DNA of 11,693 nt from Conexivisphaerales archaeon (GTDB lineage Archaea; Thermoproteota; Nitrososphaeria; Conexivisphaerales; DTJL01), in NCBI GenBank assembly GCA_049509455.1, contig JBEKZX010000048.1, positions 1-11,693 of the forward strand. The letters are read 5' to 3'. The position numbers and the translations under genes were made by a program. Numbering within the stretch: the first letter of the stretch is position 1; the number at the start of each line of letters is the position of its first letter. Positions 2 through 11,693 of the stretch are shown here, piece after piece. The notes under the pieces were generated by a model. That model saw nothing but the letters and a program-made list of their open reading frames with translations. It did not search any database and had not been told where the DNA came from.

Positions 2-841
2 GCCGACCCAGGAACCGGCGACCCCTTGAAGGACTTCGAAGAGATCGAGGGGGAGCTCGTGTCATGGTATCAGAAGATTATCGAGAGTAATCACGATAGG
101 ATAGTGAAGCGCCTCGATGCTCACCGAGCTCCGCTGGCCATCGCGGAGCCGCTAAAGGGAATGCGCGTGTCGGAGGACGACGTCTCCAAGGCGCTGGAGC
201 TAACGAAGCTCAATGGCTCTGAGTTCGACTCCTGGACCGGCGAGCAGCTCTGGAAGTTTACGGGGTTCCTCAGAGAAGTGTCCAAGCCCACCATATTGGT
301 AGCCAACAAAATGGATCTCCCTGGCGCCGTGAAGAACTATCGCAGGCTCCGGGACGCCAACCCGGACCTGATTACAGTGCCCGCCAGCGCAGAAGCCGAG
401 CTGGCCCTCCGGAAGGCTGAGCTGGGGAAGCTGATCAAGTACAACCCGGGCGACGAGAGCTTCGTCGTCTTGAATGACAAGGCCATGACGGAAAGGCAGA
501 AGTGGGCGCTCCAACACATCCAGAACATGGTTTTCAGGGAGTTCATGAGGACGGGCGTCCAGTTCGCCATAAACACGTCGGTGTTCAAGCTGCTGCGGAT
601 GAACGTCGTCTACCCCGTGTACGACCCCGAGAGGTTCTCCGACAAGCATAGCCACGTGCTCCCTGATGCCTATCTCGAGAAGGACGGTTCGACGGTGTCC
701 GACCTGGCCCAGGCCGTCCACACGCAACTGGCGAAGGGTCTGCTGTACGCCGTGGACGCCAGGACAAAGCTAAGGCTCCCCAACGACTACCACCTGAAGG
801 ACAGGGACGTCCTCAGCCTCGTCACCGCCTCCCAGAGGTAA
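2..841 (+). CDS. ychF: YchF/Obg-family translation-associated GTPase/ATPase, archaeal (Ygr210-like) type; 5'-truncated by the window edge
   Basis: The frame is open from position 2 (ADPGTGDPLKDFEEIE...), so the track's TTG at 26 is not the true start. It has a G4 motif (KPTILVANKMD), a G5-like SAEAEL and a C-terminal TGS domain (LPDAYL..GSTVSDLAQAVHT..AKGLLYAVDARTK..DRDVLSL). Stop TAA at 839-841. Confidence 0.9.
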   Translation, partial: ADPGTGDPLKDFEEIEGELVSWYQKIIESNHDRIVKRLDAHRAPLAIAEPLKGMRVSEDDVSKALELTKLNGSEFDSWTGEQLWKFTGFLREVSKPTILVANKMDLPGAVKNYRRLRDANPDLITVPASAEAELALRKAELGKLIKYNPGDESFVVLNDKAMTERQKWALQHIQNMVFREFMRTGVQFAINTSVFKLLRMNVVYPVYDPERFSDKHSHVLPDAYLEKDGSTVSDLAQAVHTQLAKGLLYAVDARTKLRLPNDYHLKDRDVLSLVTASQR

Positions 842-1385
842 GCTGCCCGCCGGCCACGACCCTTAGCCTCCGTCCCACGGCGTAGGCCAGCGCAGCCTTG
901 ATTGCATCCCAGGCCATGAAGGGGGAAAACGAGGTGGCGACCGCCAGGACGTCGCCGGACCTGAAATAGAGAAGGAAAAAGGCTATTCCCAGCGTGAAGA
1001 CGATAGTGAAGGCGCCTGCCAGGGCAATGATGTCCCCTCCCCTGCGCCTCCGCCCGGCAAGGATGGATTCCGCTAGAGCGGCGAGCGGGAACGCCAGCAG
1101 GAATCCCCCTGTCGGCCCCAGCAGAACCTGCGGGCCCCCTCCTCCATTGGCGAAGACGGGGAGCCCCGCCGTCCCCAGCAGGACGTAGAGGACCTGGCTT
1201 CCGGTGGCAGCCCATGGGTCGAGCACCAACCCCACAAGGTAGACGAAGAAGGTCTGCAGCGTGAAAGGCACCTCTCCGATGGGTATCGCTAGGTATGCCC
1301 CCAGGGCCATAAGCACGGCGAAGAGCGCCGAATAGGTCACTCGCTGCGCTCGCGACGCCACGTCGGGTCCTGAGGAAGGACTCAT
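822..1385 (-). CDS. bioY: BioY biotin transporter (ECF S-component)
   Basis: 187-aa hydrophobic protein with BioY motifs VPFTLQT, YVLLGTAGLPVFANGGGG and LLGPTGGFLLAF. It lies divergent from birA. Confidence 0.93.
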   Translation of the reverse strand: MSPSSGPDVASRAQRVTYSALFAVLMALGAYLAIPIGEVPFTLQTFFVYLVGLVLDPWAATGSQVLYVLLGTAGLPVFANGGGGPQVLLGPTGGFLLAFPLAALAESILAGRRRRGGDIIALAGAFTIVFTLGIAFFLLYFRSGDVLAVATSFSPFMAWDAIKAALAYAVGRRLRVVAGGQLTSGRR

Positions 1386-1393: not shown

Positions 1394-1423
1394 GTTAACC
1401 GGAGTCGTCCTCCTTGGTTAACA
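1393..1423. promoter_or_regulatory. Putative BirA operator: AGTTAACC-N15-GGTTAACA
   Basis: Perfect 7-bp inverted repeat GTTAACC (1394-1400) / GGTTAAC (1416-1422) between bioY and a wHTH-bearing birA. It resembles the known bioO architecture (E. coli TGTAAACC-N16-GGTTTACA; B. subtilis TGTTAAC-N16-GTTAAC). Confidence 0.75.
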
Positions 1424-2406
1424 TGGAGGGCCCTGTTCGTGAGCGGCTCCTCCCCCTTCTAAAGGTGGGCGAGGCCGTCTCCGGCGAAGAGCTGGCGGCG
1501 CGCCTGGGCGTGTCTCGCGTCGCCGTATGGAAGGGGATTAAGGAGCTCAAGGGTAGGGGAGTTCAGGTCGCTTCCGGTAGGAGGGGTTACTGGCTGTCGC
1601 AACCCGCCGACCTCATCTCCATCATAGCCCTGGAGGCCCTGCTGAAAGGGTGCCTCGTGGGGGGAACGATCGTGTACCGCGAATCGGTTGACTCCACCCA
1701 GTCGCTCGCCAGGGCCCTCGTTGAAGGAGGCGCCCATGATGGCCTCATCGTGGTGGCCGAACGGCAGTCGGAGGGCAGGGGAAGAATGGGCCGCAAATGG
1801 GTTTCGGACGCTGGCGGACTGTGGTTCACCATCGCCATACGGCCGAAGGTTTCGCCGGCCTTCCTCCAGGCGTGCACCTCTATGGTTTCGCTCAGCGTCC
1901 GCGACTCCATCCGCGCCCTTCTGGGTAGGGAGCCCCTGCTCAAATGGCCCAACGACGTTCTCGTCGGCAAGGGAAAGGTCTGCGGGGTCCTGAGCGAGGT
2001 GGCCGCGTCGGCGGACGAGATACGCTACGTCCTGCTGGGGGTCGGCGTGAACGTGAACAACGATGTAAGGTCCATAGGAGCGCGAGGAACTCCTGCGGCC
2101 TCGCTCAAGGAGCTCCTTGGACACGCGGTGCAGAGAGACGCTCTCCTAGTCTCTATCATCAAAGGTGTGGACATGAGGTATAGACGGGCGAGAAAGGAGG
2201 GTTTCGGCGCCCTCTTGGACGAGTATCGCGCCAGCTGCTCCACCGTCGGCAAAAGGGTGCGCGTGGAGTACACCGATTCAGTGATTGAAGGGATGGCAGT
2301 GGGCATCGACGAATTGGGGGCCCTGGTCGTGAAGTCGGATGGAAAGGTGTTCAAGGCGCACAGCGGAGACGTGGTGCACCTCCGGGCCAGACGACTTAAG
2401 CTCTGA
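1423..2406 (+). CDS. birA: Bifunctional biotin--protein ligase / biotin repressor (group II BirA with N-terminal wHTH)
   Basis: N-terminal HTH (SGEELAARLGVSRVAVWKGIKEL...GY), biotin-binding GRGRMGR, KWPND, KVCGVL and a C-terminal SH3-like domain (GIDELGALVV). Start ATG 1423 is preferred; an in-frame TTG at 1414 is the alternative. Confidence 0.95.
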   Translation: MEGPVRERLLPLLKVGEAVSGEELAARLGVSRVAVWKGIKELKGRGVQVASGRRGYWLSQPADLISIIALEALLKGCLVGGTIVYRESVDSTQSLARALVEGGAHDGLIVVAERQSEGRGRMGRKWVSDAGGLWFTIAIRPKVSPAFLQACTSMVSLSVRDSIRALLGREPLLKWPNDVLVGKGKVCGVLSEVAASADEIRYVLLGVGVNVNNDVRSIGARGTPAASLKELLGHAVQRDALLVSIIKGVDMRYRRARKEGFGALLDEYRASCSTVGKRVRVEYTDSVIEGMAVGIDELGALVVKSDGKVFKAHSGDVVHLRARRLKL

Positions 2407-2462: not shown

Positions 2463-2762
2463 TTGAGCATCACCGTGAAGCTCTACGGAAGGATAAGGGA
2501 CTACTTCGGGACCCAAGAGATCGTTGTGGAGGACGAGGTCGAGACGGTGGGGGATCTAGTCGATATCCTAAACAGGAGGAGCGGTGGCAGGCTGTCCGAC
2601 TTCTTCTTCGACCCAGGGACGAGGGAGATCAGACCATCCTTCATCATGCTCGTCAACGGCCACAGCATACGCCTCTTGCACGGCCTAAAGACGCATCTTT
2701 ACGGGAACAACGACATCGTGATCGATAACATAGACATCTTAGAGACCGAAGGCGGGGGCTGA
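2463..2762 (+). CDS. MoaD/ThiS-family ubiquitin-like (SAMP-type) protein / sulfur carrier
   Basis: Beta-grasp pattern: ITVKLYGRIRDYFG, TVGDLVDIL, FIMLVNGHSIRLLHGLKTHL, and a C-terminal GGG. TTG start with GGAG 8 nt upstream. Confidence 0.85.
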   Translation: MSITVKLYGRIRDYFGTQEIVVEDEVETVGDLVDILNRRSGGRLSDFFFDPGTREIRPSFIMLVNGHSIRLLHGLKTHLYGNNDIVIDNIDILETEGGG

Positions 2763-2810
2763 CGGCTGCCGAGGGCAAAGCAGCTCCCATCAACGCCTAA
2801 TGCGAGAAGG

Positions 2811-2817
2811 TTTTATA
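2811..2817 (+). promoter_or_regulatory. Putative BRE/TATA (GAGAAGG-TTTTATA) for the GNAT-like gene
   Basis: Purine-rich tract followed by TTTTATA, 26-32 bp before ATG 2843, which fits a leaderless transcript. Confidence 0.6.
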
Positions 2818-2842
2818 GCCTAATTGCGGGTAAAGTGCTATC

Positions 2843-3571
2843 ATGCCCTCCAAATGGTCACCTCCGGAGAACGTGACTCTCAGCAAGGTCGAGATCAACG
2901 TCGAGGATCTCGAGCCCATCCTCCGTGGCCTCGAGTCGCCTCTTCTGCAGAACGAGTACCCAGCTAGGTATCTGACCCTCCCTACCGGCGACAAGCTGGT
3001 GGTAAGGAGGGCGAAGAAGGAGGAGGCGCCTCTTGTGATGCAAACGTGCCTCAAGCTCTTCGATAAGTCCACCGACTTCTACGACGTGGTGGCGCCGAGG
3101 GTCTATGCCGAGTTCGTCGGCTGGTACCGCAGCCGCGTCAAGGACCACGTCGCGCTGCTGGGGATTCTCAATGGCGAGCTGGCGGCGATCGCCAACTTCA
3201 GGCTCTGGGACGACAAGACCGCCATCAGCCTTCACACCCTGGCCTTCAAGAGGGGCTCCGGTATCGGCGCGCTCATGTACGTCGCCAAGATGGAGTATGC
3301 ATTCGACTTCATGGGCGTCAACGAGTGGTACGCCTGCTACGAGAGCTACACCGGCTTTCGCTACTGGGGGCTCAAGCTGGCGCAGCATGAGAAGCCCTTC
3401 CCCACGATGCAGCATGAGCTGGGCGGCTCCAGAATATACTTCAACACCAAGGACGACTGGGAACGCTTCGTCAAACCGCTCTTCGCCGAAAGGCTGGGCA
3501 CACGTCCGGTGCCTCCGGATGTCCTGGCCGCTGCGGAGACCGTGAAGATACCCGACAAAGTGGAGATATAG
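2843..3571 (+). CDS. GNAT-fold N-acyltransferase-like protein, substrate unknown
   Basis: 242 aa. It has a GNAT beta1-like LTLPTGDKLVVRRAKKEEA, GILNGELAAIANFR, and the acyl-CoA pyrophosphate-binding motif R-G-S-G-I-G (residues 137-142, fits R/Q-x-x-G-x-G/A). Third-position GC is high. No specific subfamily recognised. Confidence 0.6.
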   Translation: MPSKWSPPENVTLSKVEINVEDLEPILRGLESPLLQNEYPARYLTLPTGDKLVVRRAKKEEAPLVMQTCLKLFDKSTDFYDVVAPRVYAEFVGWYRSRVKDHVALLGILNGELAAIANFRLWDDKTAISLHTLAFKRGSGIGALMYVAKMEYAFDFMGVNEWYACYESYTGFRYWGLKLAQHEKPFPTMQHELGGSRIYFNTKDDWERFVKPLFAERLGTRPVPPDVLAAAETVKIPDKVEI

Positions 3572-3692: not shown

Positions 3693-3992
3693 TTGAACAA
3701 CGGCCTGCTCGCCGGGCTCCTCTTCCTTTACATATTCGTCATCCAGTTCGTCCCATTAGCCTATTCGGTCAAGCTGGCGGCGCAGCTATCGATTGGGCTG
3801 GCGGGAGTCCTCCTGGGCTTCTACTTAGCCAAGCTGAACCTCGTGAAGGCCTCCACCTTGTTCCTGCCCGTAGTCGCCTACTTCGCTTTCCTGATCTACA
3901 CGAATTATGATGCGAGCTACATCTTCTTCGCGTCCTTCGGGTTACTCCTGGTCGTCGTGTTCGCCTTGACGTGGAGTATGAGACGCAAGTAG
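3693..3992 (+). CDS. Hypothetical small integral membrane protein (3-4 predicted TM helices)
   Basis: 99 aa, almost all hydrophobic, with a basic C-terminus (MRRK) and mostly G/C third positions. TTG is the only start after the in-frame TAG at 3681. No family recognised. Confidence 0.65.
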   Translation: MNNGLLAGLLFLYIFVIQFVPLAYSVKLAAQLSIGLAGVLLGFYLAKLNLVKASTLFLPVVAYFAFLIYTNYDASYIFFASFGLLLVVVFALTWSMRRK

Positions 3993-4005: not shown

Positions 4006-4012
4006 TTATATA
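4006..4012 (+). promoter_or_regulatory. Putative TATA box (TTATATA) of the decarboxylase operon
   Basis: Lies 27-33 bp upstream of ATG 4039, typical spacing for a leaderless archaeal transcript. Confidence 0.6.
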
Positions 4013-4038: not shown

Positions 4039-4254
4039 ATGACATCCGATGTCGTTGCACCCATCCCCGGAAAGGTTCTTCGCATAAATTGCAGAATTGG
4101 AGACAAGGTGACGGCGGACACTTCGGTCGTCACGCTTGAGTCCATGAAGATGGAGATCGACGTGTACCCCGATGTGGCGGGGACACTCTCCGAGGTTCTT
4201 GTCAAGGTCGGGGATTTTGCCGAGCAGGGGAAGGTTCTAGCCAGAGTCGACTAG
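4039..4254 (+). CDS. Stand-alone biotin carboxyl carrier protein (single biotinyl domain)
   Basis: 71 aa: VVAPIPGKV..I...GDKV, the biotinylation motif LESMKME (Lys37, 34 residues from the C-terminus), and G.L.EVLVKVGD...G.VL. Confidence 0.92.
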   Translation: MTSDVVAPIPGKVLRINCRIGDKVTADTSVVTLESMKMEIDVYPDVAGTLSEVLVKVGDFAEQGKVLARVD

Positions 4255-4265
4255 GTGGAGATGCC

Positions 4266-4397
4266 TTGAGTGAGCTTGGGACGGCGCTCTACACGTCTGG
4301 CATCATATTCATCGTCCTCTTCTCCATGTCTGCCGCCGTGGCAGTGATAATACAGATCATCCACCGGGTGGTAGGTGGAAAGCGGCAGGGGAAGTGA
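4266..4397 (+). CDS. 43-aa single-TM protein, OadG/GcdD/MmdD-like membrane anchor (not in the ORF track)
   Basis: My translation: MSELGTALYTSGIIFIVLFSMSAAVAVIIQIIHRVVGGKRQGK. It has an SD-like GGTGGAG 5 nt before TTG 4266, and its TGA (4395-4397) overlaps the next gene's GTG (GTGA coupling). The G-I-I-F-I-V-L hydrophobic stretch plus basic tail resembles the OadG N-terminus. Confidence 0.75.
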   Translation: MSELGTALYTSGIIFIVLFSMSAAVAVIIQIIHRVVGGKRQGK

Positions 4398-5659
4398 CGG
4401 GAATGGTGGCCTTCGATCCCTCGCAGTTCTTCCCCGCCCTCCTCTCCTTCTTCCAGACGTCTCTTGAATACTCCCTCGTCAGAATAGGCCTCATCGCCGT
4501 GGGCGCCTTCATGGTCTGGACCGGTTACAAGCGCATCACGGAGCCGCTGATCATGATACCCATGGGCATAGGCCTGCTCTTTGTCAACACGGCTCTCTTC
4601 TTCATCACACCTCTCCCTCCTCTTCTCGCCGGCATCTCCAACCCGGACGTCAACCCGCTGGTAGGGGCCAACGCCACGAACTACGTCAACGCCACCTTTG
4701 AGACCAGCGCAGCCAACTCGATCTACTGGCTTCAGCCCATCTATTCCTTCACGTTCACGAACGGGCTCATCGCCTGCCTTGTCTTCTTGGGCATCGGTGC
4801 CATCACCGACCTCGACTTTCTGATCGCGCGGCCGTTTACCTCGATGATCCTCGCGGCCTTCGCCGAGCTGGGCACCGTGCTGACCTTTCCCCTAGCCATC
4901 GCCGCGGGGCTGAACCCTGGGCAGGCGGCTTCCGTCGCCATGGTCGGAGGAGCTGATGGCCCCATGGTCCTGTTCACTTCTCTTGCCCTGGCTAGGGATA
5001 TCTTCGTCCCCATCACCGTGGTGGCCTACATATACCTCTCTGTATTGTACCTCTTCCAAGGGAGGCTCAACGAGCTAACCATACCGGAGAAGCTGCGGGC
5101 CACCTTCATGGACTCCAGACAGCTCCCTAAGATATCTCAGCAGGAGAAGTTCCTGTTCGCGGTCATCGTGGGGACGGTGCTGAGCCTCCTCTTCCCGGTG
5201 GCGTCTCCGCTCTTCGCGGCTTTCTTCCTGGGCAACGCCATCAAGGAGAGCGGCGTGGAGCGCTTCAAGAAGCTAGCCGACGAGGTCATACTGAGCATCT
5301 CGACACTCTTCCTGGGCTTCGTGCTGGGGATGCTGCTCACTCCTACGACCGTGCTGGACTCAAGAATCTACCTCATCCTTGGCCTAGGCATAACGGCCCT
5401 GGTCCTCTCGGCGATAGGCGGGAACATAGGGGGGATCATCGCCTACTACTACACGAAGGGGAAGGTCAACCCTCTCCTGGGCTCGGCGGCCGTGTCGTGT
5501 GTCCCCACTAGCGCGAAGATAGCCCAGCTCAACGCCAGCAAGCTGAACAAGAAGAATTACATCGTCCTCTTCGCCATGGGCCCTAACGTGGCCGGAGTCA
5601 TCACGACGGCCATCGTGTGCGCGGCCTACCTTACGTTGGTGCCTGTGCTCTTCCACTAG
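4394..5659 (+). CDS. madB: Ion (Na+)-translocating carboxybiotin decarboxylase beta subunit (OadB/GcdB/MmdB/MadB family), MadB-like
   Basis: 421-aa polytopic membrane protein with family motifs EPLIMIPMGIG, GIGAITD, GGADGP, NPLLGSAAVS and AMGPNVAGVI. The variants WLQPIYSFTFTNGLIAC, GGADGPMVLF and VSCVPTSAKIAQ match my recollection of MadB rather than OadB (GGADGPTAI, SAVPMAARV). Confidence 0.9.
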   Translation: MTGMVAFDPSQFFPALLSFFQTSLEYSLVRIGLIAVGAFMVWTGYKRITEPLIMIPMGIGLLFVNTALFFITPLPPLLAGISNPDVNPLVGANATNYVNATFETSAANSIYWLQPIYSFTFTNGLIACLVFLGIGAITDLDFLIARPFTSMILAAFAELGTVLTFPLAIAAGLNPGQAASVAMVGGADGPMVLFTSLALARDIFVPITVVAYIYLSVLYLFQGRLNELTIPEKLRATFMDSRQLPKISQQEKFLFAVIVGTVLSLLFPVASPLFAAFFLGNAIKESGVERFKKLADEVILSISTLFLGFVLGMLLTPTTVLDSRIYLILGLGITALVLSAIGGNIGGIIAYYYTKGKVNPLLGSAAVSCVPTSAKIAQLNASKLNKKNYIVLFAMGPNVAGVITTAIVCAAYLTLVPVLFH

Positions 5660-5687: not shown

Positions 5688-6323
5688 TTAGCGCAAGGAA
5701 GGCCTGGTGCCACTGGCCACATAGACGACTGAGTCGCCGATGTAGCAGGCGTGGTCGGCCATCCTCTCAAGGTACCTGATGGCGAGGGTTACCGCCACCG
5801 TGCACCTGGGGTTCGTTATCTTGTTGACGGCTATCCTGTGAATATGCTTCCTGTAGGCGTCGTCGACTTCGTCATCCATCTGCAGCAGCCCCATGGCAGC
5901 GGTGGTGTCCTCGTTGAAGAACGCCTCTACACCGATGTGAACCATCTTCTTCACCTTCTCCCCCATCCGCGTCACTTCACCGCTATCGCAACCTGATAAG
6001 TCTCCGAAGGCGTCGATGATCTGTGCGACGTCATACGCGTACCTCCCCAGCCTGGAGAAACCATAGGAGATTTCGAAGCAAGATTCGATGTAACGCAAAT
6101 CTCCCGCGAGCGGCTGGTACCGTGCGATCAGCTCAACCGCCAAGTCGCTGGCCTGGCCGTGCAGTATGTTCAGTTCCTCCGACCAGCCGAAGATCTCCTC
6201 CGTCACGGGCTTGCTTTCGGTGTAGGCCTTGATCGCTGTTTCGACCGACTGCTCTGAAAGAGTCGCCATCTCCCTCAGCATATGCCTGAGCCTTTCCAGT
6301 CCTGGATCTATTAATCGTGTCAA
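5688..6323 (-). CDS. phoU: Phosphate transport regulatory protein PhoU
   Basis: 211 aa with two PhoU repeats (LIARYQPLAGDLR; MDDEVDDAY; RYLERMADHACYI). Last gene of the pst operon, TTG start. Confidence 0.92.
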   Translation of the reverse strand: MTRLIDPGLERLRHMLREMATLSEQSVETAIKAYTESKPVTEEIFGWSEELNILHGQASDLAVELIARYQPLAGDLRYIESCFEISYGFSRLGRYAYDVAQIIDAFGDLSGCDSGEVTRMGEKVKKMVHIGVEAFFNEDTTAAMGLLQMDDEVDDAYRKHIHRIAVNKITNPRCTVAVTLAIRYLERMADHACYIGDSVVYVASGTRPSLR

Positions 6324-6329
6324 CCTTGA

Positions 6330-7175
6330 TTACCCGAACTTGCCAGTGATGTACCTCTCAGTGAGCTGCTCCCTGGGGTTTTCAAAGAGTCTATCCGTGA
6401 CACCATATTCGATGAGCTCGCCCAGATATAAGAAGGCAGTGTAGTCGGAGACCCTTGCCGCCTGCTGGAGGTTGTGGGTCACTATCACGATGGTGTAATC
6501 CTTCTTCAGCTCAGCCATCGCCTCCTCGATCTTGGCGGTGGCCGTGGGATCCAACGCGGATGCCGGCTCGTCCATGAGAAGGACTTCGGGCTGAACCGCC
6601 AGCGCCCTGGCGATGCAGAGCCTCTGCTGCTGCCCCCCCGAAAGGGCGGCCCCGGACTTCTTGAGCTCGCCCTTGACCTCGTCCCAGAGGAAGGCCATCT
6701 TCAGGCTCCGCTCGACCACTTCGTCGAGCACCTTCCTGTCCCGCACACCGTTCAGCTTCAGGCCGGCCGCGGCGTTGTCATAGACGGACATCATGGGGAA
6801 CGGGTTGGGTTTCTGGAATATCATCCCTATCTTTCGCCTGACTGCCACCGAATCCACGTTAGGCGCGTAGATGTCCTCCCCATCGAGGAGGACTTCACCA
6901 GACACAGTGGCTCCCGGGGTAAGCTCATGTATCCTGTTCAAGCATCTGATGAACGTGGTCTTGCCGCATCCGGAAGGTCCCATGATGGCGGTTATGCTCT
7001 TCTCTTTGAAACTCAGGCTGATGCCCTTCAGCACCTCTGAGGTGCCGAATCCGGCCTTCAGGTTCCTCGTTTCGAGCTTGGCAGCTCCCCTATCAAGCTC
7101 AGGCGAGATGTCCACTTCGACCTTCTCTTCAACCTGTCTACCATACCCCCCTTTCTGCATTTCCATGATCGTCAC
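6330..7175 (-). CDS. pstB: Phosphate ABC transporter ATP-binding protein PstB
   Basis: Walker [19 protein letters not shown], signature [15 protein letters not shown], Walker B LLMDEP, VTHN, and terminal [10 protein letters not shown]. The start could be GTG 7175 or a nearby ATG. Confidence 0.97.
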
Positions 7176-8051
7176 CTAGATCTCCGCCCGCACCGCTGCG
7201 AACTTCCTCCCGATAGTGAGCTTGGTCAGGAGATTGATAGCCAACATCAGCAGCACAAGGATTAGGGCCGCACCCCAGGCGTCAGCTTGCCAGTCGCGAA
7301 ACGGCGAAATGGCGTATGTGTAGATCAAGAGGGAGAGCGCGGCAGTGGGCTGCATGAGGCCACTGGCATAGTATGTGCTCCCCAGGGCGGTGAGGATCAG
7401 GGGGGCTGTCTCTCCAGCCGCGCGGGCGATGGCCAGCAGGATGCCTGTGGCAAGGCCGGCCCTGCCCGTGCTGATGACCACCCCGGTGACGGTCCTGGCC
7501 CTTGAAACGCCTAGCGCCATTGAGCCCTCCCTGAGCGTCCTGGGGACCAGCTTTAGAGATTCCTCCGTGGTCCGCGCGATTATGGGGGTCATGATGATGG
7601 CCAAGGCCAAGGCGCCAGCCAGGGCGGAGAACGTCTTGGTCGTGAGGACCACGACGATGTAGACGAATATCCCGATCACTATCGAGGGGAACTCGGCCAG
7701 CACGTCGTTCAGGAAGCTGGATAGGAAGGAGAGCCTGGACTCAGGCCACTCGGAGAAGAAGATGCCCGCGCCTACGCCCAGTGGGACCGAGATGAGCGTC
7801 GCTATCCCCACCATGGTGAAGGTCCCCAGAAGGGCGTTAGCTATCCCACCACCGGCGATTTCCGGGGGCGTGGGGAGGCTCGTCAGGAACTTCCAGGAGA
7901 TGACCGGTGCACCCCTCGCTACCACTTCGCCCAATATGAGGATAAGGGGGACCATGGCGAGGAGCACCGCCAAGAACACCAAAGCCGTGAAAATCAGATT
8001 AACAACCCTGCGCCTGCGTGCCACACCCGTCGGCAGCTTAAGCTTCTCCAA
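7176..8051 (-). CDS. pstA: Phosphate ABC transporter permease PstA
   Basis: GGGIANALLGT, LAEFPSIVIGIF, the EAA loop (RTTEESLKLVPRTLREGSMALG), ARAAGETAPL and AWGAALIL. Confidence 0.95.
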   Translation of the reverse strand: MEKLKLPTGVARRRRVVNLIFTALVFLAVLLAMVPLILILGEVVARGAPVISWKFLTSLPTPPEIAGGGIANALLGTFTMVGIATLISVPLGVGAGIFFSEWPESRLSFLSSFLNDVLAEFPSIVIGIFVYIVVVLTTKTFSALAGALALAIIMTPIIARTTEESLKLVPRTLREGSMALGVSRARTVTGVVISTGRAGLATGILLAIARAAGETAPLILTALGSTYYASGLMQPTAALSLLIYTYAISPFRDWQADAWGAALILVLLMLAINLLTKLTIGRKFAAVRAEI

Positions 8052-8062
8052 TCCAATTCCAC

Positions 8063-9022
8063 CTACACCCTGAAGCGCGAGAACCGCGTCATCCGCCAGA
8101 GGAGAAGCCTCGCGAAGACGTTTATCACGAGGGCTAGGACGAAGAGCATCAAGCCCAGCTCGACGAGGGATGAGACATAGAGCGGAGAGGTAGCTTCGGT
8201 GAACTCGTTGGCTATCACGCTGGCTAGGGTATAGCCCGGGGAGAACAGGGAGGAGGAGATCCTGGGGGCGTTCCCTATCACCATGGTCACGGCCATCGTT
8301 TCGCCCACGGCCCTCCCTAGGCCCAGGATCGTTGCCCCGAACAGGCCCGATCTGGCGTAGGGTAGGACGCCGTGGCGGATGACCTCCCAGTCAGTGCCAC
8401 CGAGAGAGTAGAGGGCCTCCCGTTGGCTGTTGGGAACGGCATTCAGCACGTTCCTTGAGATGGCGGAGACTGTCGGGATTATCATGGTCGCCAGGATGAC
8501 GCCCGCGGTGAGGAAATCGAGGCCGAAGGGAGTCCCCGTGAACAGGGGAACGAAACCGAGGTAATGGCTGAGGGGCTTCTCCACGTAGTCGCGGATTAGC
8601 GGGCTGAGGACGAACAGACCCCAGAGCCCGAAGATTACGCTGGGAACGGCCGCAAGTAGCTCGACGATTGTCCCGAGGACGTATGCCAGCCCTCTTTTTC
8701 CCCTCAGCTTCTCGACAAGGCAGATGGCCACCCCGAGGCTGATGGGGAGCCCGATCAGGAGGGCGATGGCCGAAGTCAAAAGAGTCCCATAGACGAAGGG
8801 GAGGGCTCCGAAGACAGAATGGACGGGATCCCAAGTGGTGGTCACTATGAATTGGAAGCCGAACGCCTTCAGGGAAAGGCGAGAGCCAGAGATCAGTTCG
8901 TATGCCAGGAGGATCAGAAGAAATAGAACGAAGGCCGAAGCTGCCGCCACGGCCCCCTTCAGTATGACGTCACCGGTGAGCGACGCACGCCGTACCCTGG
9001 GCTGTCCACCCAACAAGCCCAC
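8063..9022 (-). CDS. pstC: Phosphate ABC transporter permease PstC
   Basis: TWDPV...FGALPFVYGTL, ELLAAVPSVIFGLWG, VPNSQREALYSLGGT, GRAVGETMAVTMVIGN and TLASVIANEF. Start is GTG 9022 or TTG 9016. Confidence 0.95.
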   Translation of the reverse strand: MGLLGGQPRVRRASLTGDVILKGAVAAASAFVLFLLILLAYELISGSRLSLKAFGFQFIVTTTWDPVHSVFGALPFVYGTLLTSAIALLIGLPISLGVAICLVEKLRGKRGLAYVLGTIVELLAAVPSVIFGLWGLFVLSPLIRDYVEKPLSHYLGFVPLFTGTPFGLDFLTAGVILATMIIPTVSAISRNVLNAVPNSQREALYSLGGTDWEVIRHGVLPYARSGLFGATILGLGRAVGETMAVTMVIGNAPRISSSLFSPGYTLASVIANEFTEATSPLYVSSLVELGLMLFVLALVINVFARLLLWRMTRFSRFRV

Positions 9023-9047
9023 TCTCCAGCGGATGGAGGAAAGGCGT

Positions 9048-10196
9048 CTATCCTCCCTGATGGAGCTGCTGCCCGTTGTAGGTTATCGACTTTATCGTGG
9101 CTTCGTCAAGGGCAACTATGTTGGACGGAAGCGCTGCATAGCCGTATTTCGCTCCAGCAGTCTGCCCGGTGGTAACCACCCACCAGAGGAAGTTCACAAG
9201 AGCCGTGCCCTTGGCGTGGTCCGTCTGCTGCTGATAGGCCAAGAGGTATGTGAGCGTTGTTATGGGGTAGGCTGTTGTAGCTGTCTGGTTGTTGACGATG
9301 GCATCGATGATTGAAACGTTGGTCCACTGTTGATTTCCCGCCGGCAGTGCAGCTGACCCTCCTGCCGTCAAGGCGTTGGCGATGTTCGTCAGGTTCGCGA
9401 GGACATATGTGCCGGCAGCGTTCTGCACGGCCCCGTATGAGATGAGCCCTGAGTTGATGATTTCATAGGCTATCTCCAGGGGGCCGATCGAATATTGGTT
9501 GCCCTCTATATCGCCCGCCACTCCTTCGTTGCCCTTCCCTCCCAGGCCGACGGGCCAGTTCACTGAACTGCCCTTACCCACCTGACTCTTCCACTGAGGG
9601 CTCACTTGTGAGAGATAGTCGGTGAAGGCGAACATCGTGCCGCTGCCGTCAGACCTGTGCACAACTACGATGGCGTGGTTGGGGAGCGTCACGTTCGGGT
9701 TAATGGCTTGAAGTGTCGGGTCGTTCCACTGGGTGATGTTGCCGAGGAATATCTGGGCCAGTATGGGCCCTGTGAAGTTGAGACCGTTCCCTATCCCGGG
9801 TACGTTATACGCGGGCACTACCGCGCTGGCCGACTCAGGTATGGTCACCAACGTAGCCGGGAGAGCCGCGTACTGTGCAACCGTCAATGGGGCGTCGGAC
9901 CCGCCGAAGTCCACGGTGCCGGCCGTGACCTGCGCGATCCCTGCGCCGCTACCCACGCTGGCGTAGTTGATGTTGATGCCAGGATTGGCCTGTCCGTAGG
10001 CGTACGTCCAGAGCTGCATTACGGGATTGATGAGGGTGCTACCCGCCCCATTGAGATTTGCCGGCACGACCGTGGTCGTCGTCCTCTCACTGCCGCCGTA
10101 AATCTCATAGACACCGATTCCCGCTATCGCAAGCAATATGACGATGCCAACAACAGCGATGCGGCTGATGGCGTTCCTCTTTCTGAACTTGTTCAA
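9048..10196 (-). CDS. pstS: Phosphate ABC transporter substrate-binding protein PstS, N-terminally membrane-anchored
   Basis: GAGST, YASVGSGAG, VDFGGSDAPL, HRSDGSGT, GKGNEGVA and AYPI motifs. A basic N-terminus is followed by a hydrophobic helix. TTG start. Confidence 0.95.
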   Translation of the reverse strand: MNKFRKRNAISRIAVVGIVILLAIAGIGVYEIYGGSERTTTTVVPANLNGAGSTLINPVMQLWTYAYGQANPGININYASVGSGAGIAQVTAGTVDFGGSDAPLTVAQYAALPATLVTIPESASAVVPAYNVPGIGNGLNFTGPILAQIFLGNITQWNDPTLQAINPNVTLPNHAIVVVHRSDGSGTMFAFTDYLSQVSPQWKSQVGKGSSVNWPVGLGGKGNEGVAGDIEGNQYSIGPLEIAYEIINSGLISYGAVQNAAGTYVLANLTNIANALTAGGSAALPAGNQQWTNVSIIDAIVNNQTATTAYPITTLTYLLAYQQQTDHAKGTALVNFLWWVVTTGQTAGAKYGYAALPSNIVALDEATIKSITYNGQQLHQGG

Positions 10197-10229
10197 GTCC
10201 TACTCTGACGCCTACAGCCTTCCAGGCAC

Positions 10230-10235
10230 TATATA
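10230..10235 (-). promoter_or_regulatory. Putative TATA box of the pstSCAB-phoU operon (TATATA within palindromic CTATATAG, 10229-10236)
   Basis: Lies 34-39 bp upstream of the pstS start on the minus strand. Confidence 0.55.
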
Positions 10236-10295
10236 GACAAGGCGCATATTGACTATATTGCAAATGCGATGAATATAGATGTCTTGTCATGATGC

Positions 10296-10303
10296 TTTAA
10301 TAT
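10296..10303 (+). promoter_or_regulatory. Putative TATA box (TTTAATAT) of the AbrB-PhoU regulator gene
   Basis: Lies 22-29 bp upstream of ATG 10325. It is the same octamer as before birA. Confidence 0.55.
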
Positions 10304-10324
10304 GCGCATCGAGTACTCACACTC

Positions 10325-11350
10325 ATGGATTCTGAGGAAGAGATACGCAAGGTGCAGTTCACAGGTCGCGCGTCTTACATCGTTAACCTGCCCAAGAGGT
10401 GGATCATCAAGCAGAACGTCCATCAGGGCGACTCCTTGGTTGTCATCCCTCAGGTTGACGGCTCACTTCGCATTGCCCCGAAGTCCATGGCCAGGGGGGA
10501 TGGATCATTAGAAGCCGTCATGAAGGTGCCGGCAGACCTAGACAACGACGCTCTGACTAGGAGGCTCGTCTCCCTCTACCTCAGCGGCTACAACACCGTC
10601 AGGCTGGTGGCCAGCGGTGGCGTGACGATGGTGCAGAGGGAAGCCGTCAAAGACCTCATCAGGACGCGTTTCGTCGGCACCGAGATAGTCTCCGAGTCCT
10701 CCGACAGCATGACGCTCCAGGTCCTGATGAGCCTGCCCGAGCTTCCAGTCGAGGACGCCCTCAGGAGGATGTCCATCATAACCGGGTTCATGCTCAAGGA
10801 TGCGTTCAGGGCTGTTGAGACGCTAGACAAGAGCCTCGCCAATTCTGTGATGAGGGCGGACGATGAGGTGGATAGGTTCAGCCTCTACGTCATACGGCAG
10901 CTCGTGAACGCCGTCATGAACCAGGTGGTCATGAAGGAGATTGGACTCTCCAGCCCGGCGGAATGCCTCGGCTACAGGGTCGTGGTGAAGACAGTAGAAA
11001 GGATGGCTGACCACGCGGCCAGGATAGCCAGCACCGTGATTTCGATGGATAGGAAGCTGGATAGCTCGACCCTCGCCGACCTCGCCGAATTCAAGGCGCT
11101 GGACGCCCAGGCGCTGGACGCCAGCTTGGCGGCTCTGTTCAAGCGCGACTATTCCATGGCCGAGGGGGTGTTCGCCGTCGTCAGCAGGTGCAGGAAGCTG
11201 GATGCCAAGGTCCTGGCCCGCATCTCGGAGAAGAAGAGCGGCGACGAAACGACGTCCAGACTGGTCGCCGAAGACTTGAGGAGATGGGCAGAATATGCCG
11301 CCGACATAGCAGAGGTCGTCCTCAACCTTACAGTCACTTCCTCTCCCTAG
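10325..11350 (+). CDS. Archaeal phosphate uptake regulator: N-terminal AbrB/SpoVT-type DNA-binding domain plus PhoU domains
   Basis: N-terminal IRKVQFTGRASYIVNLPKRW...GD, followed by PhoU repeats (ADDEVDRF, ERMADHAARIA, DLRRWAEYAADIAE). It lies divergent from pstS. Confidence 0.92.
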   Translation: MDSEEEIRKVQFTGRASYIVNLPKRWIIKQNVHQGDSLVVIPQVDGSLRIAPKSMARGDGSLEAVMKVPADLDNDALTRRLVSLYLSGYNTVRLVASGGVTMVQREAVKDLIRTRFVGTEIVSESSDSMTLQVLMSLPELPVEDALRRMSIITGFMLKDAFRAVETLDKSLANSVMRADDEVDRFSLYVIRQLVNAVMNQVVMKEIGLSSPAECLGYRVVVKTVERMADHAARIASTVISMDRKLDSSTLADLAEFKALDAQALDASLAALFKRDYSMAEGVFAVVSRCRKLDAKVLARISEKKSGDETTSRLVAEDLRRWAEYAADIAEVVLNLTVTSSP

Positions 11351-11382: not shown

Positions 11383-11693
11383 CTAAAGCGGGATGTTGCC
11401 GTGGACACCCCGAGGCTTGACGTTCTTTCTACTCTTGTTGGTGGCAAGCCGGCGGAGAGCAGACGCCAGGAGCCCTCTGGTGGCCGCAGGCTCTGTGACG
11501 ATGTCGACATAGCCCTTGGCTGCCGAGATGTAGGGGTTCATGTACTCGACGCGGTACTCAAGGACCATCTTCCGGAAGGCTTCCTCCTTCTTCTCGGGGG
11601 GCATGGCCTCCAGCTCCTTCTTCCTGACGATTTCTATCCCTCCTTCGGGTCCCATCACTGCGATCTCGGCGGTCGGGTACGCCAGCACGAGGT
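11383..11693 (-). CDS. Acyl-CoA carboxylase/decarboxylase carboxyltransferase subunit (PccB/MmdA-like), C-terminal part; the 5' end is outside the window
   Basis: The frame stays open to the window edge (...LVLAYPTAEIAVMGPEGG). It contains NPYISAAKGYVDIV.EP..TR and the terminal HGNIPL typical of PccB/MmdA. Stop TAG at 11383-11385. Confidence 0.9.
   Translation of the reverse strand, partial: LVLAYPTAEIAVMGPEGGIEIVRKKELEAMPPEKKEEAFRKMVLEYRVEYMNPYISAAKGYVDIVTEPAATRGLLASALRRLATNKSRKNVKPRGVHGNIPL

Follow-up and report, generated by a model that had tools for sequence, protein, structure and literature searches.

To judge from the genes that we observe, their families, conserved residues and synteny, and the gene contexts of relatives, a three-gene operon of a hot-spring archaeon (order Conexivisphaerales) probably encodes the membrane module of a biotin-dependent ion pump of the methylmalonyl-CoA decarboxylase type. 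The operon lies at positions 4039 to 5659 of a stretch of 11,693 nucleotides (nt; contig JBEKZX010000048.1 of assembly GCA_049509455.1, referred to here as the window), which is the whole of contig C84 in a 2.05-Mb, 140-contig metagenome-assembled genome (MAG) with a completeness of 95.5%. Its system is most likely an ordinary archaeal methylmalonyl-CoA-type decarboxylase of a widespread and already annotated family, and no new kind of system.

The first gene of the operon encodes a stand-alone biotin carrier of 71 amino acids (aa) that resembles MmdC and MadF (4039..4254, + strand) and carries its biotinyl lysine, K37, in an ESMKM motif; it supplies the separate carrier subunit expected of an Mmd complex (PF00364, 54.5 bits), scoring only 27 bits on the MmdC model NF047903 (cut-off 200). 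It is followed by an open reading frame (ORF) for a 43-aa peptide with one hydrophobic helix (4266..4397, +), an ORF that also stands directly 5' of the beta gene in relatives, and by the gene for the 421-aa carboxybiotin decarboxylase or ion-translocating beta subunit, a member of the MadB-like clade of OAD_beta (4394..5659, +). The peptide ORF opens with TTG, in front of which stands GGTGGAG, and it shares the sequence GTGA (4394-4397) with the next gene, this containing both its own TGA stop and the GTG start of beta. Some 30 nt before the ATG of the carrier gene we read a TATA-like TTATATA (4006..4012, +) that may serve as the operon's own TATA box. All three ORFs, together with this putative promoter element, had been described in an initial annotation of the same DNA and were recovered at the same coordinates.

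Membership of the beta subunit in OAD_beta is clear from its score on PF03977 (326.1 bits, cut-off 31.6), and it also exceeds the cut-off of TIGR01109 (220.7 against 190.6 bits) and matches Salmonella OadB (PDB ID 6IVA) with an E value of 8.8e-42. Counting residues through the HMMER alignment to 6IVA, we found that D188, Y214, N359, G363, S368 and K375 are the equivalents of OadB D203, Y229, N373, G377, S382 and R389 (K. pneumoniae numbering), respectively, just as the initial annotation had aligned them, and the retention of the Na+-site and coupling residues supports its view that the decarboxylase is intact. The equivalents of D203, Y229, N373 and G377 were invariant in 99/99 family members compared, and that of S382 was kept in 98/99. 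The R389 position is a Lys in 53/53 MadB-like and an Arg in 46/46 classical sequences, and as this Lys is found throughout its clade it marks no peculiarity of the gene in the window. Considering also that substitutions of R389 in the Klebsiella oxaloacetate decarboxylase KpOAD do not severely inhibit the enzyme (PMC7274780), we rejected the Lys as a sign of altered function.

A probable alpha subunit is found at the far end of the window, where the C-terminal 102 aa of an MmdA-like (12S-type) carboxyltransferase are encoded on the opposite strand (11383..11691, -; PF01039, 54 bits), the gene being cut by the contig end. The initial annotation had reported no carboxyltransferase in the operon, which is right, but the window does contain one. 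In two relatives whose beta is 81% identical (L009 and L010) the whole arrangement is syntenic with the window and the carboxyltransferase gene is complete; over its C-terminus the full-length L009 protein shares 72% identity with the fragment. The transferases of the window-end type match only the mmdA model TIGR01117, with 700-740 bits (701 bits for the full-length L009 ortholog), all below its cut-off of 998.8. Because NCBIfam gives both this transferase and a second, full-length one on contig C53 of the same genome nothing but TIGR01117 under the cut-off, orthology was taken from a transferase tree. There the L009 protein is sister to the beta-adjacent transferase of a more distant archaeon, L012 (support of 99 in the Shimodaira-Hasegawa-like approximate likelihood-ratio test, SH-aLRT), and the C53 protein is a paralogue. 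By identity and synteny we judge the window-end transferase to be the ortholog of that of L009.

The gene contexts of relatives bear on the substrate. We collected at least 80 named bacterial loci of the beta family, plus archaeal loci and proteins, clustered their neighbouring ORFs and gave the clusters Pfam labels, and found that genes for 12S-type carboxyltransferases, carriers, epimerase or mutase commonly adjoin MadB-like betas in bacteria and archaea alike. In L012 (GCA_029775915.1, JARVKA010000001.1, a Nitrososphaerales-labelled MAG with a beta 56% identical to that of the window) the order is DctPQM, CoA-transferase, SucCD, BirA, BioY, transferase, carrier, beta, epimerase, mutase, MeaB and B12 subunit. 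This stretch (L012 1-15480) forms a complete succinate-to-propionate cluster, with a micro-ORF between carrier and beta. A genome of the same order as ours, G009, has a compact transferase-carrier-peptide-beta operon, and a Thermoprotei-type locus reads peptide-beta-transferase-carrier. That relatives' betas adjoin mutase and epimerase genes points to methylmalonyl-CoA, and in the genome of the window itself we found two methylmalonyl-CoA mutase sets, an epimerase, MeaB, SucCD and a family III CoA-transferase, so that a supply route for (S)-methylmalonyl-CoA through mutase and epimerase is present. A different pairing is seen in a Methanomethylicia contig (L111 1768-7221). Its MadB-like beta accompanies a carboxyltransferase of the OadA type lacking a biotin domain, and the locus also holds a separately encoded carrier of 72 aa and a sodium:dicarboxylate symporter; the whole resembles an oxaloacetate decarboxylase whose alpha subunit is split. 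Since MadB-like betas pair with 12S-type or OadA-type transferases, the likeness of a beta to MadB gives no indication of substrate; the beta is a module common to several systems, in which the carboxyltransferase sets the substrate.

From these data we infer substrate, direction, pumped ion and assembly of the complex as follows. Succinyl-CoA would be converted to methylmalonyl-CoA by the B12-dependent mutases and the epimerase, and the MmdA-like carboxyltransferase would then move the carboxyl group of (S)-methylmalonyl-CoA to the biotin of the 71-aa carrier, leaving propionyl-CoA as the product. The 421-aa beta would decarboxylate the carboxybiotin, coupled to the export of Na+ (or possibly H+), with the 43-aa peptide packing against it in the manner of the OadG helix, lacking the tail that tethers the alpha subunit. 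Cofactor would be supplied by two further genes of the window, a BioY component of a biotin transporter (822..1385, -; PF02632, 117 bits) and a BirA biotin-protein ligase with an N-terminal helix-turn-helix domain (1414..2406, +; PF03099, PF02237 and HTH_11; TIGR00121, 184 bits), both of which the initial annotation had also noted. In L012 BioY and BirA likewise adjoin the transferase-carrier-beta genes.

The 43-aa peptide finds no match in Pfam or NCBIfam, and so none to OAD_gamma (PF04277). It ends in KRQGK and consists of the helix only, with no cytosolic tail. A single-helix ORF of about 37-55 aa stands directly 5' of the beta gene in most MadB-like loci, including 5/6 mad clusters, and a comparable peptide ORF was found in 5/5 relatives of the same order (alignment A2). 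We modelled the complex of beta and peptide and obtained a score of 0.69 against 0.00 for the best control, a mark reached by 58/80 solved complexes and by 2/110 mismatched pairs; the runs agreed in at least 98% of contacts, with a predicted local distance difference test (pLDDT) value of at least 77 for the partner. The modelled interface on beta comprises residues 143-170, 247-266 and 400-420; by our own mapping, the gamma-binding helices T4, T6 and T10 of the Salmonella enzyme StOAD (PMC7274780) occupy the equivalent places. As the beta-gamma complex of StOAD has already been solved, the passing score may reflect likeness only. In the Salmonella structure OadG is visible through Phe43 and its tail recruits the alpha subunit (PMC7274780), and the peptide has about the same length as this visible part. 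Its sequence suggests an equivalent of the OadG/MmdD membrane helix minus the alpha-docking tail.

Several observations weigh against a methylmalonyl-CoA decarboxylase. The source is a MAG in 140 contigs. Within the window the carboxyltransferase is truncated and lies 5.7 kb from the operon on the opposite strand, so that the two may not be co-regulated, and the transferase models cannot separate MmdA from PccB, all scores being under the cut-off. The beta gene is patchy, being found in 6/41 genomes searched (of the window's class, mostly its own order). In addition the peptide has neither an OAD_gamma match nor an alpha-docking tail, so the operon lacks a delta subunit of the kind that the Mmd complex has, namely one of the OAD_gamma family with such a tail; in the V. 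parvula complex this subunit is said to be indispensable for complex formation (as cited in PMC11575231). Lastly, an ATP-dependent carboxylase may use the carrier as well.

This last point forms the basis of the best surviving alternative, which holds that the 71-aa carrier is mainly or also the biotin carboxyl carrier protein (BCCP) of an ATP-dependent acetyl- or propionyl-CoA carboxylase, made up of the AccC of contig C38 and the transferase of C53, with beta being reversed by the ion gradient or draining carboxybiotin. We consider this quite unlikely. The assembled genome shows no biotin domain besides that of this carrier, a custom hidden Markov model (HMM) run against the six-frame translated genome having found no second one, and a partial AccC with no adjoining BCCP begins contig C38 (C38:1-933, locus L006). 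In a relative of the same genus, G004, a complete AccC of 499 aa (L106:7384-8883) likewise has no BCCP near it, and the single biotin carrier stands beside beta. Sharing of the carrier is possible because the genus thus has a lone biotin carboxylase, a second transferase, full-length on C53 in our genome, and one carrier; either a BCCP gene fell into an assembly gap, or an ATP-dependent carboxylase draws on the same carrier. However, since C38 begins inside accC, the loss of accB in such a gap is possible, and translational linkage ties the carrier gene to those for peptide and beta and not to accC. Moreover, both enzymes working on one carrier would make a futile cycle. Other families of the order have carrier and beta with no AccC found (G009, G012 and G015, with one carrier each in genomes 68-95% complete), so that the primary role of the carrier is more likely in the decarboxylase. 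An additional PF00364 match in G002 was set aside, as it falls at the N-terminus of a 360-aa frame that we read as a lipoyl E2-type protein.

The initial annotation had instead favoured a decarboxylase of the MadB branch in a combination that has not been described, with malonyl-CoA (or some other acyl-CoA) as its main substrate and replacing the malonyl-ACP (acyl carrier protein) route, and this we regard as very unlikely. The greater likeness of beta to MadB than to OadB that it had noted is borne out by the scores, since the MadB equivalog TIGR03136 is the top-scoring of the MadB-specific and general models (376.3 bits, against 220.7 for TIGR01109 and about 153 for the OadB models), yet this remains short of the 596.9 bits that the MadB model requires. 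A similar range of 346-505 bits was obtained for ten archaeal and bacterial relatives, and one of 346-522 bits for MadB-like betas with no mad genes, and among the sequences tested only six exceed the cut-off (634-734 bits), all of which adjoin genes for MadA, malonate ACP, MdcE and MdcG. In a 99-row maximum-likelihood tree with tips labelled by gene context, and anchored by gene context and NCBIfam cut-offs in place of the sequences of M. rubra MadB, V. parvula MmdB, K. pneumoniae OadB and A. fulgidus OadB, the family splits deeply into a classical and a MadB-like clade (SH-aLRT 100 on both sides). Classical members are found with OadA, gamma and carrier, or with epimerase, 12S transferase, gamma and carrier. 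True MadB is a single derived bacterial subclade of the MadB-like clade, formed by the same six sequences (support 100), whereas the beta of the window belongs to a separate, five-member archaeal subclade (SH-aLRT 99). Forcing the latter together with true MadB, a grouping defined after the tree had been seen, costs 115 log-likelihood units and is rejected by the approximately unbiased (AU) test (p-AU 8.6e-5). Membership in the MadB branch proper could therefore not be upheld, and by the tree the protein nests within ordinary archaeal MmdB/OadB clades, an outcome that the initial annotation had itself named as speaking against it.

What remains in favour of this reading is that no malonate machinery was found in the 95.5%-complete genome, as had been proposed, and that our literature search gave no biochemical account in which a MadB-like beta works with an acyl-CoA carboxyltransferase. 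Searches of the genome with PF16957, PF06857 and PF01874 for MadA, malonate ACP and CitG gave no match, and neither MdcE nor MdcG was seen there; a mad cluster elsewhere in the genome was therefore rejected. The acyl-CoA carboxyltransferase partner that the initial annotation expected is supported by the fragment in the window and by relatives' contexts. However, the combination of a MadB-like beta with a 12S-type transferase, which had been thought undescribed, is common in bacterial and archaeal genomes, and the mutase and epimerase genes of relatives point to methylmalonyl-CoA. Two further features of the clade were observed along the way: MadB-like betas are carried by Syntrophaceae and Desulfobacterales, and in L036 and L048 (Bacteroidales/Prolixibacteraceae, around 7780-11220) a classical and a MadB-like beta gene occur within one epimerase-transferase-gamma-carrier operon.

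A decarboxylase of glutaconyl-CoA or some other acyl-CoA appears highly improbable. GcdA is also among the 12S-type carboxyltransferases, and the MadB-like betas of Syntrophaceae and Desulfobacterales would suit it, but the transferase matches the mmdA model only and relatives' contexts again hold mutase and epimerase genes. An oxaloacetate decarboxylase with a split alpha subunit, for which L111 offers a precedent in its MadB-like beta, OadA-type transferase and 72-aa carrier, is hardly credible and was rejected, as the PYC_OADA domain of OadA (PF02436) found no match anywhere in the genome.

Returning to the methylmalonyl-CoA decarboxylase, we can offer one broader and rather doubtful speculation, that in this genus a single free 71-aa carrier serves two opposed machines, namely the decarboxylase and a carboxylase of AccC and the C53 transferase. 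More generally, MadB-like betas with their tail-less micro-subunit might constitute an untethered, modular decarboxylase that takes carboxybiotin from any transferase present, be it 12S-type, OadA-type or MadC/D.

The window holds further genes around the operon. Directly 5' of the carrier gene is a very hydrophobic ORF of 99 aa (3693-3992, +) with no Pfam or NCBIfam match, which is kept at the same place in the relatives with 81%-identical betas (L009 9301-9573, L010 9274-9573), while relatives further away do not have it in their compact operons. Upstream of it, at 2463-3571 (+), a ThiS-like gene of 99 aa precedes a 242-aa gene that has no family match, and L009 and L010 keep this pair, too, in the interval from birA to the decarboxylase genes. 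Downstream, at 5688-11350, follows an ordinary phosphate-uptake cassette (PhoU, PstB, PstA, PstC, PstS and an AbrB/MazE-PhoU fusion regulator), and in this genus it is the pst cassette that separates the beta gene from the probable carboxyltransferase, whereas in G009 the transferase instead stands directly 5' of the carrier.

For annotation, the substrate of such systems is predicted by the carboxyltransferase and gene context and not by the likeness of beta to MadB. NCBI already names a protein that clusters at 90% identity with the nearest relative of this beta, and the family-level name is correct. The tail-less subunit of 40-55 aa is often uncalled and deserves annotation. In Conexivisphaerales and related archaea, the transferase and carrier genes could also be miscounted as a propionyl-CoA carboxylase, i.e. 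as markers of the hydroxypropionate/hydroxybutyrate cycle; if they belong to an energy-conserving decarboxylase, the reconstruction shifts from carbon fixation to fermentation of succinate or amino acids to propionate. The Conexivisphaerales paper contains no discussion of the decarboxylase, and our literature search yielded no MadB-like, non-malonate enzyme that has been characterised biochemically; we know of no characterised MadB-like member outside the malonate system.

Among known systems, the closest in setting is the Mmd Na+ pump (MmdABCDE) of Veillonella parvula and Propionigenium modestum, which likewise has a 12S-type transferase, a separate carrier, an OAD_beta protein and a setting of mutase and epimerase. 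It differs in that the beta of the window lies in the MadB-like and not the classical clade, to which we take the characterised MmdB proteins to belong, and has Lys at OadB R389; moreover the carrier of the window is a bare 71-aa domain, a tail-less helix of 43 aa replaces MmdD/OAD_gamma, and the pst cassette stands between transferase and operon. Malonomonas rubra MadB (TIGR03136) provides the best-scoring model for this beta and shares with it the Lys at the R389 position, and as in the window a micro-ORF is found directly 5' of beta in 5/6 mad-context loci. Here, by contrast, 376 bits fall short of the cut-off of 596.9, the subclade is separate, and the genome shows no MadA, ACP, MdcE, MdcG or CitG. 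OadGAB (Salmonella 6IVA/6IWW; Klebsiella) has the same beta fold family with its Na+-site and coupling residues, and our model places the gamma-like helix on what we map as the same face of beta, although no OadA was found, the putative gamma equivalent has no alpha-binding C-terminal tail, and Lys replaces R389. Dispersed mmd genes and small unannotated ORFs within bacterial mmd operons have been noted previously (PMC11575231). Finally, pairs of beta and a small subunit in archaea (Staphylothermus marinus Smar_1503-1504; Pyrococcus) have been predicted to form Na+-translocating methylmalonyl-CoA decarboxylases with a separately encoded carboxyltransferase (PMC2678158). Those archaea are reported to lack the mutase and epimerase, while both are present here. 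Archaeal methylmalonyl-CoA decarboxylases of such a layout have been predicted since at least 2009 (PMC2678158).

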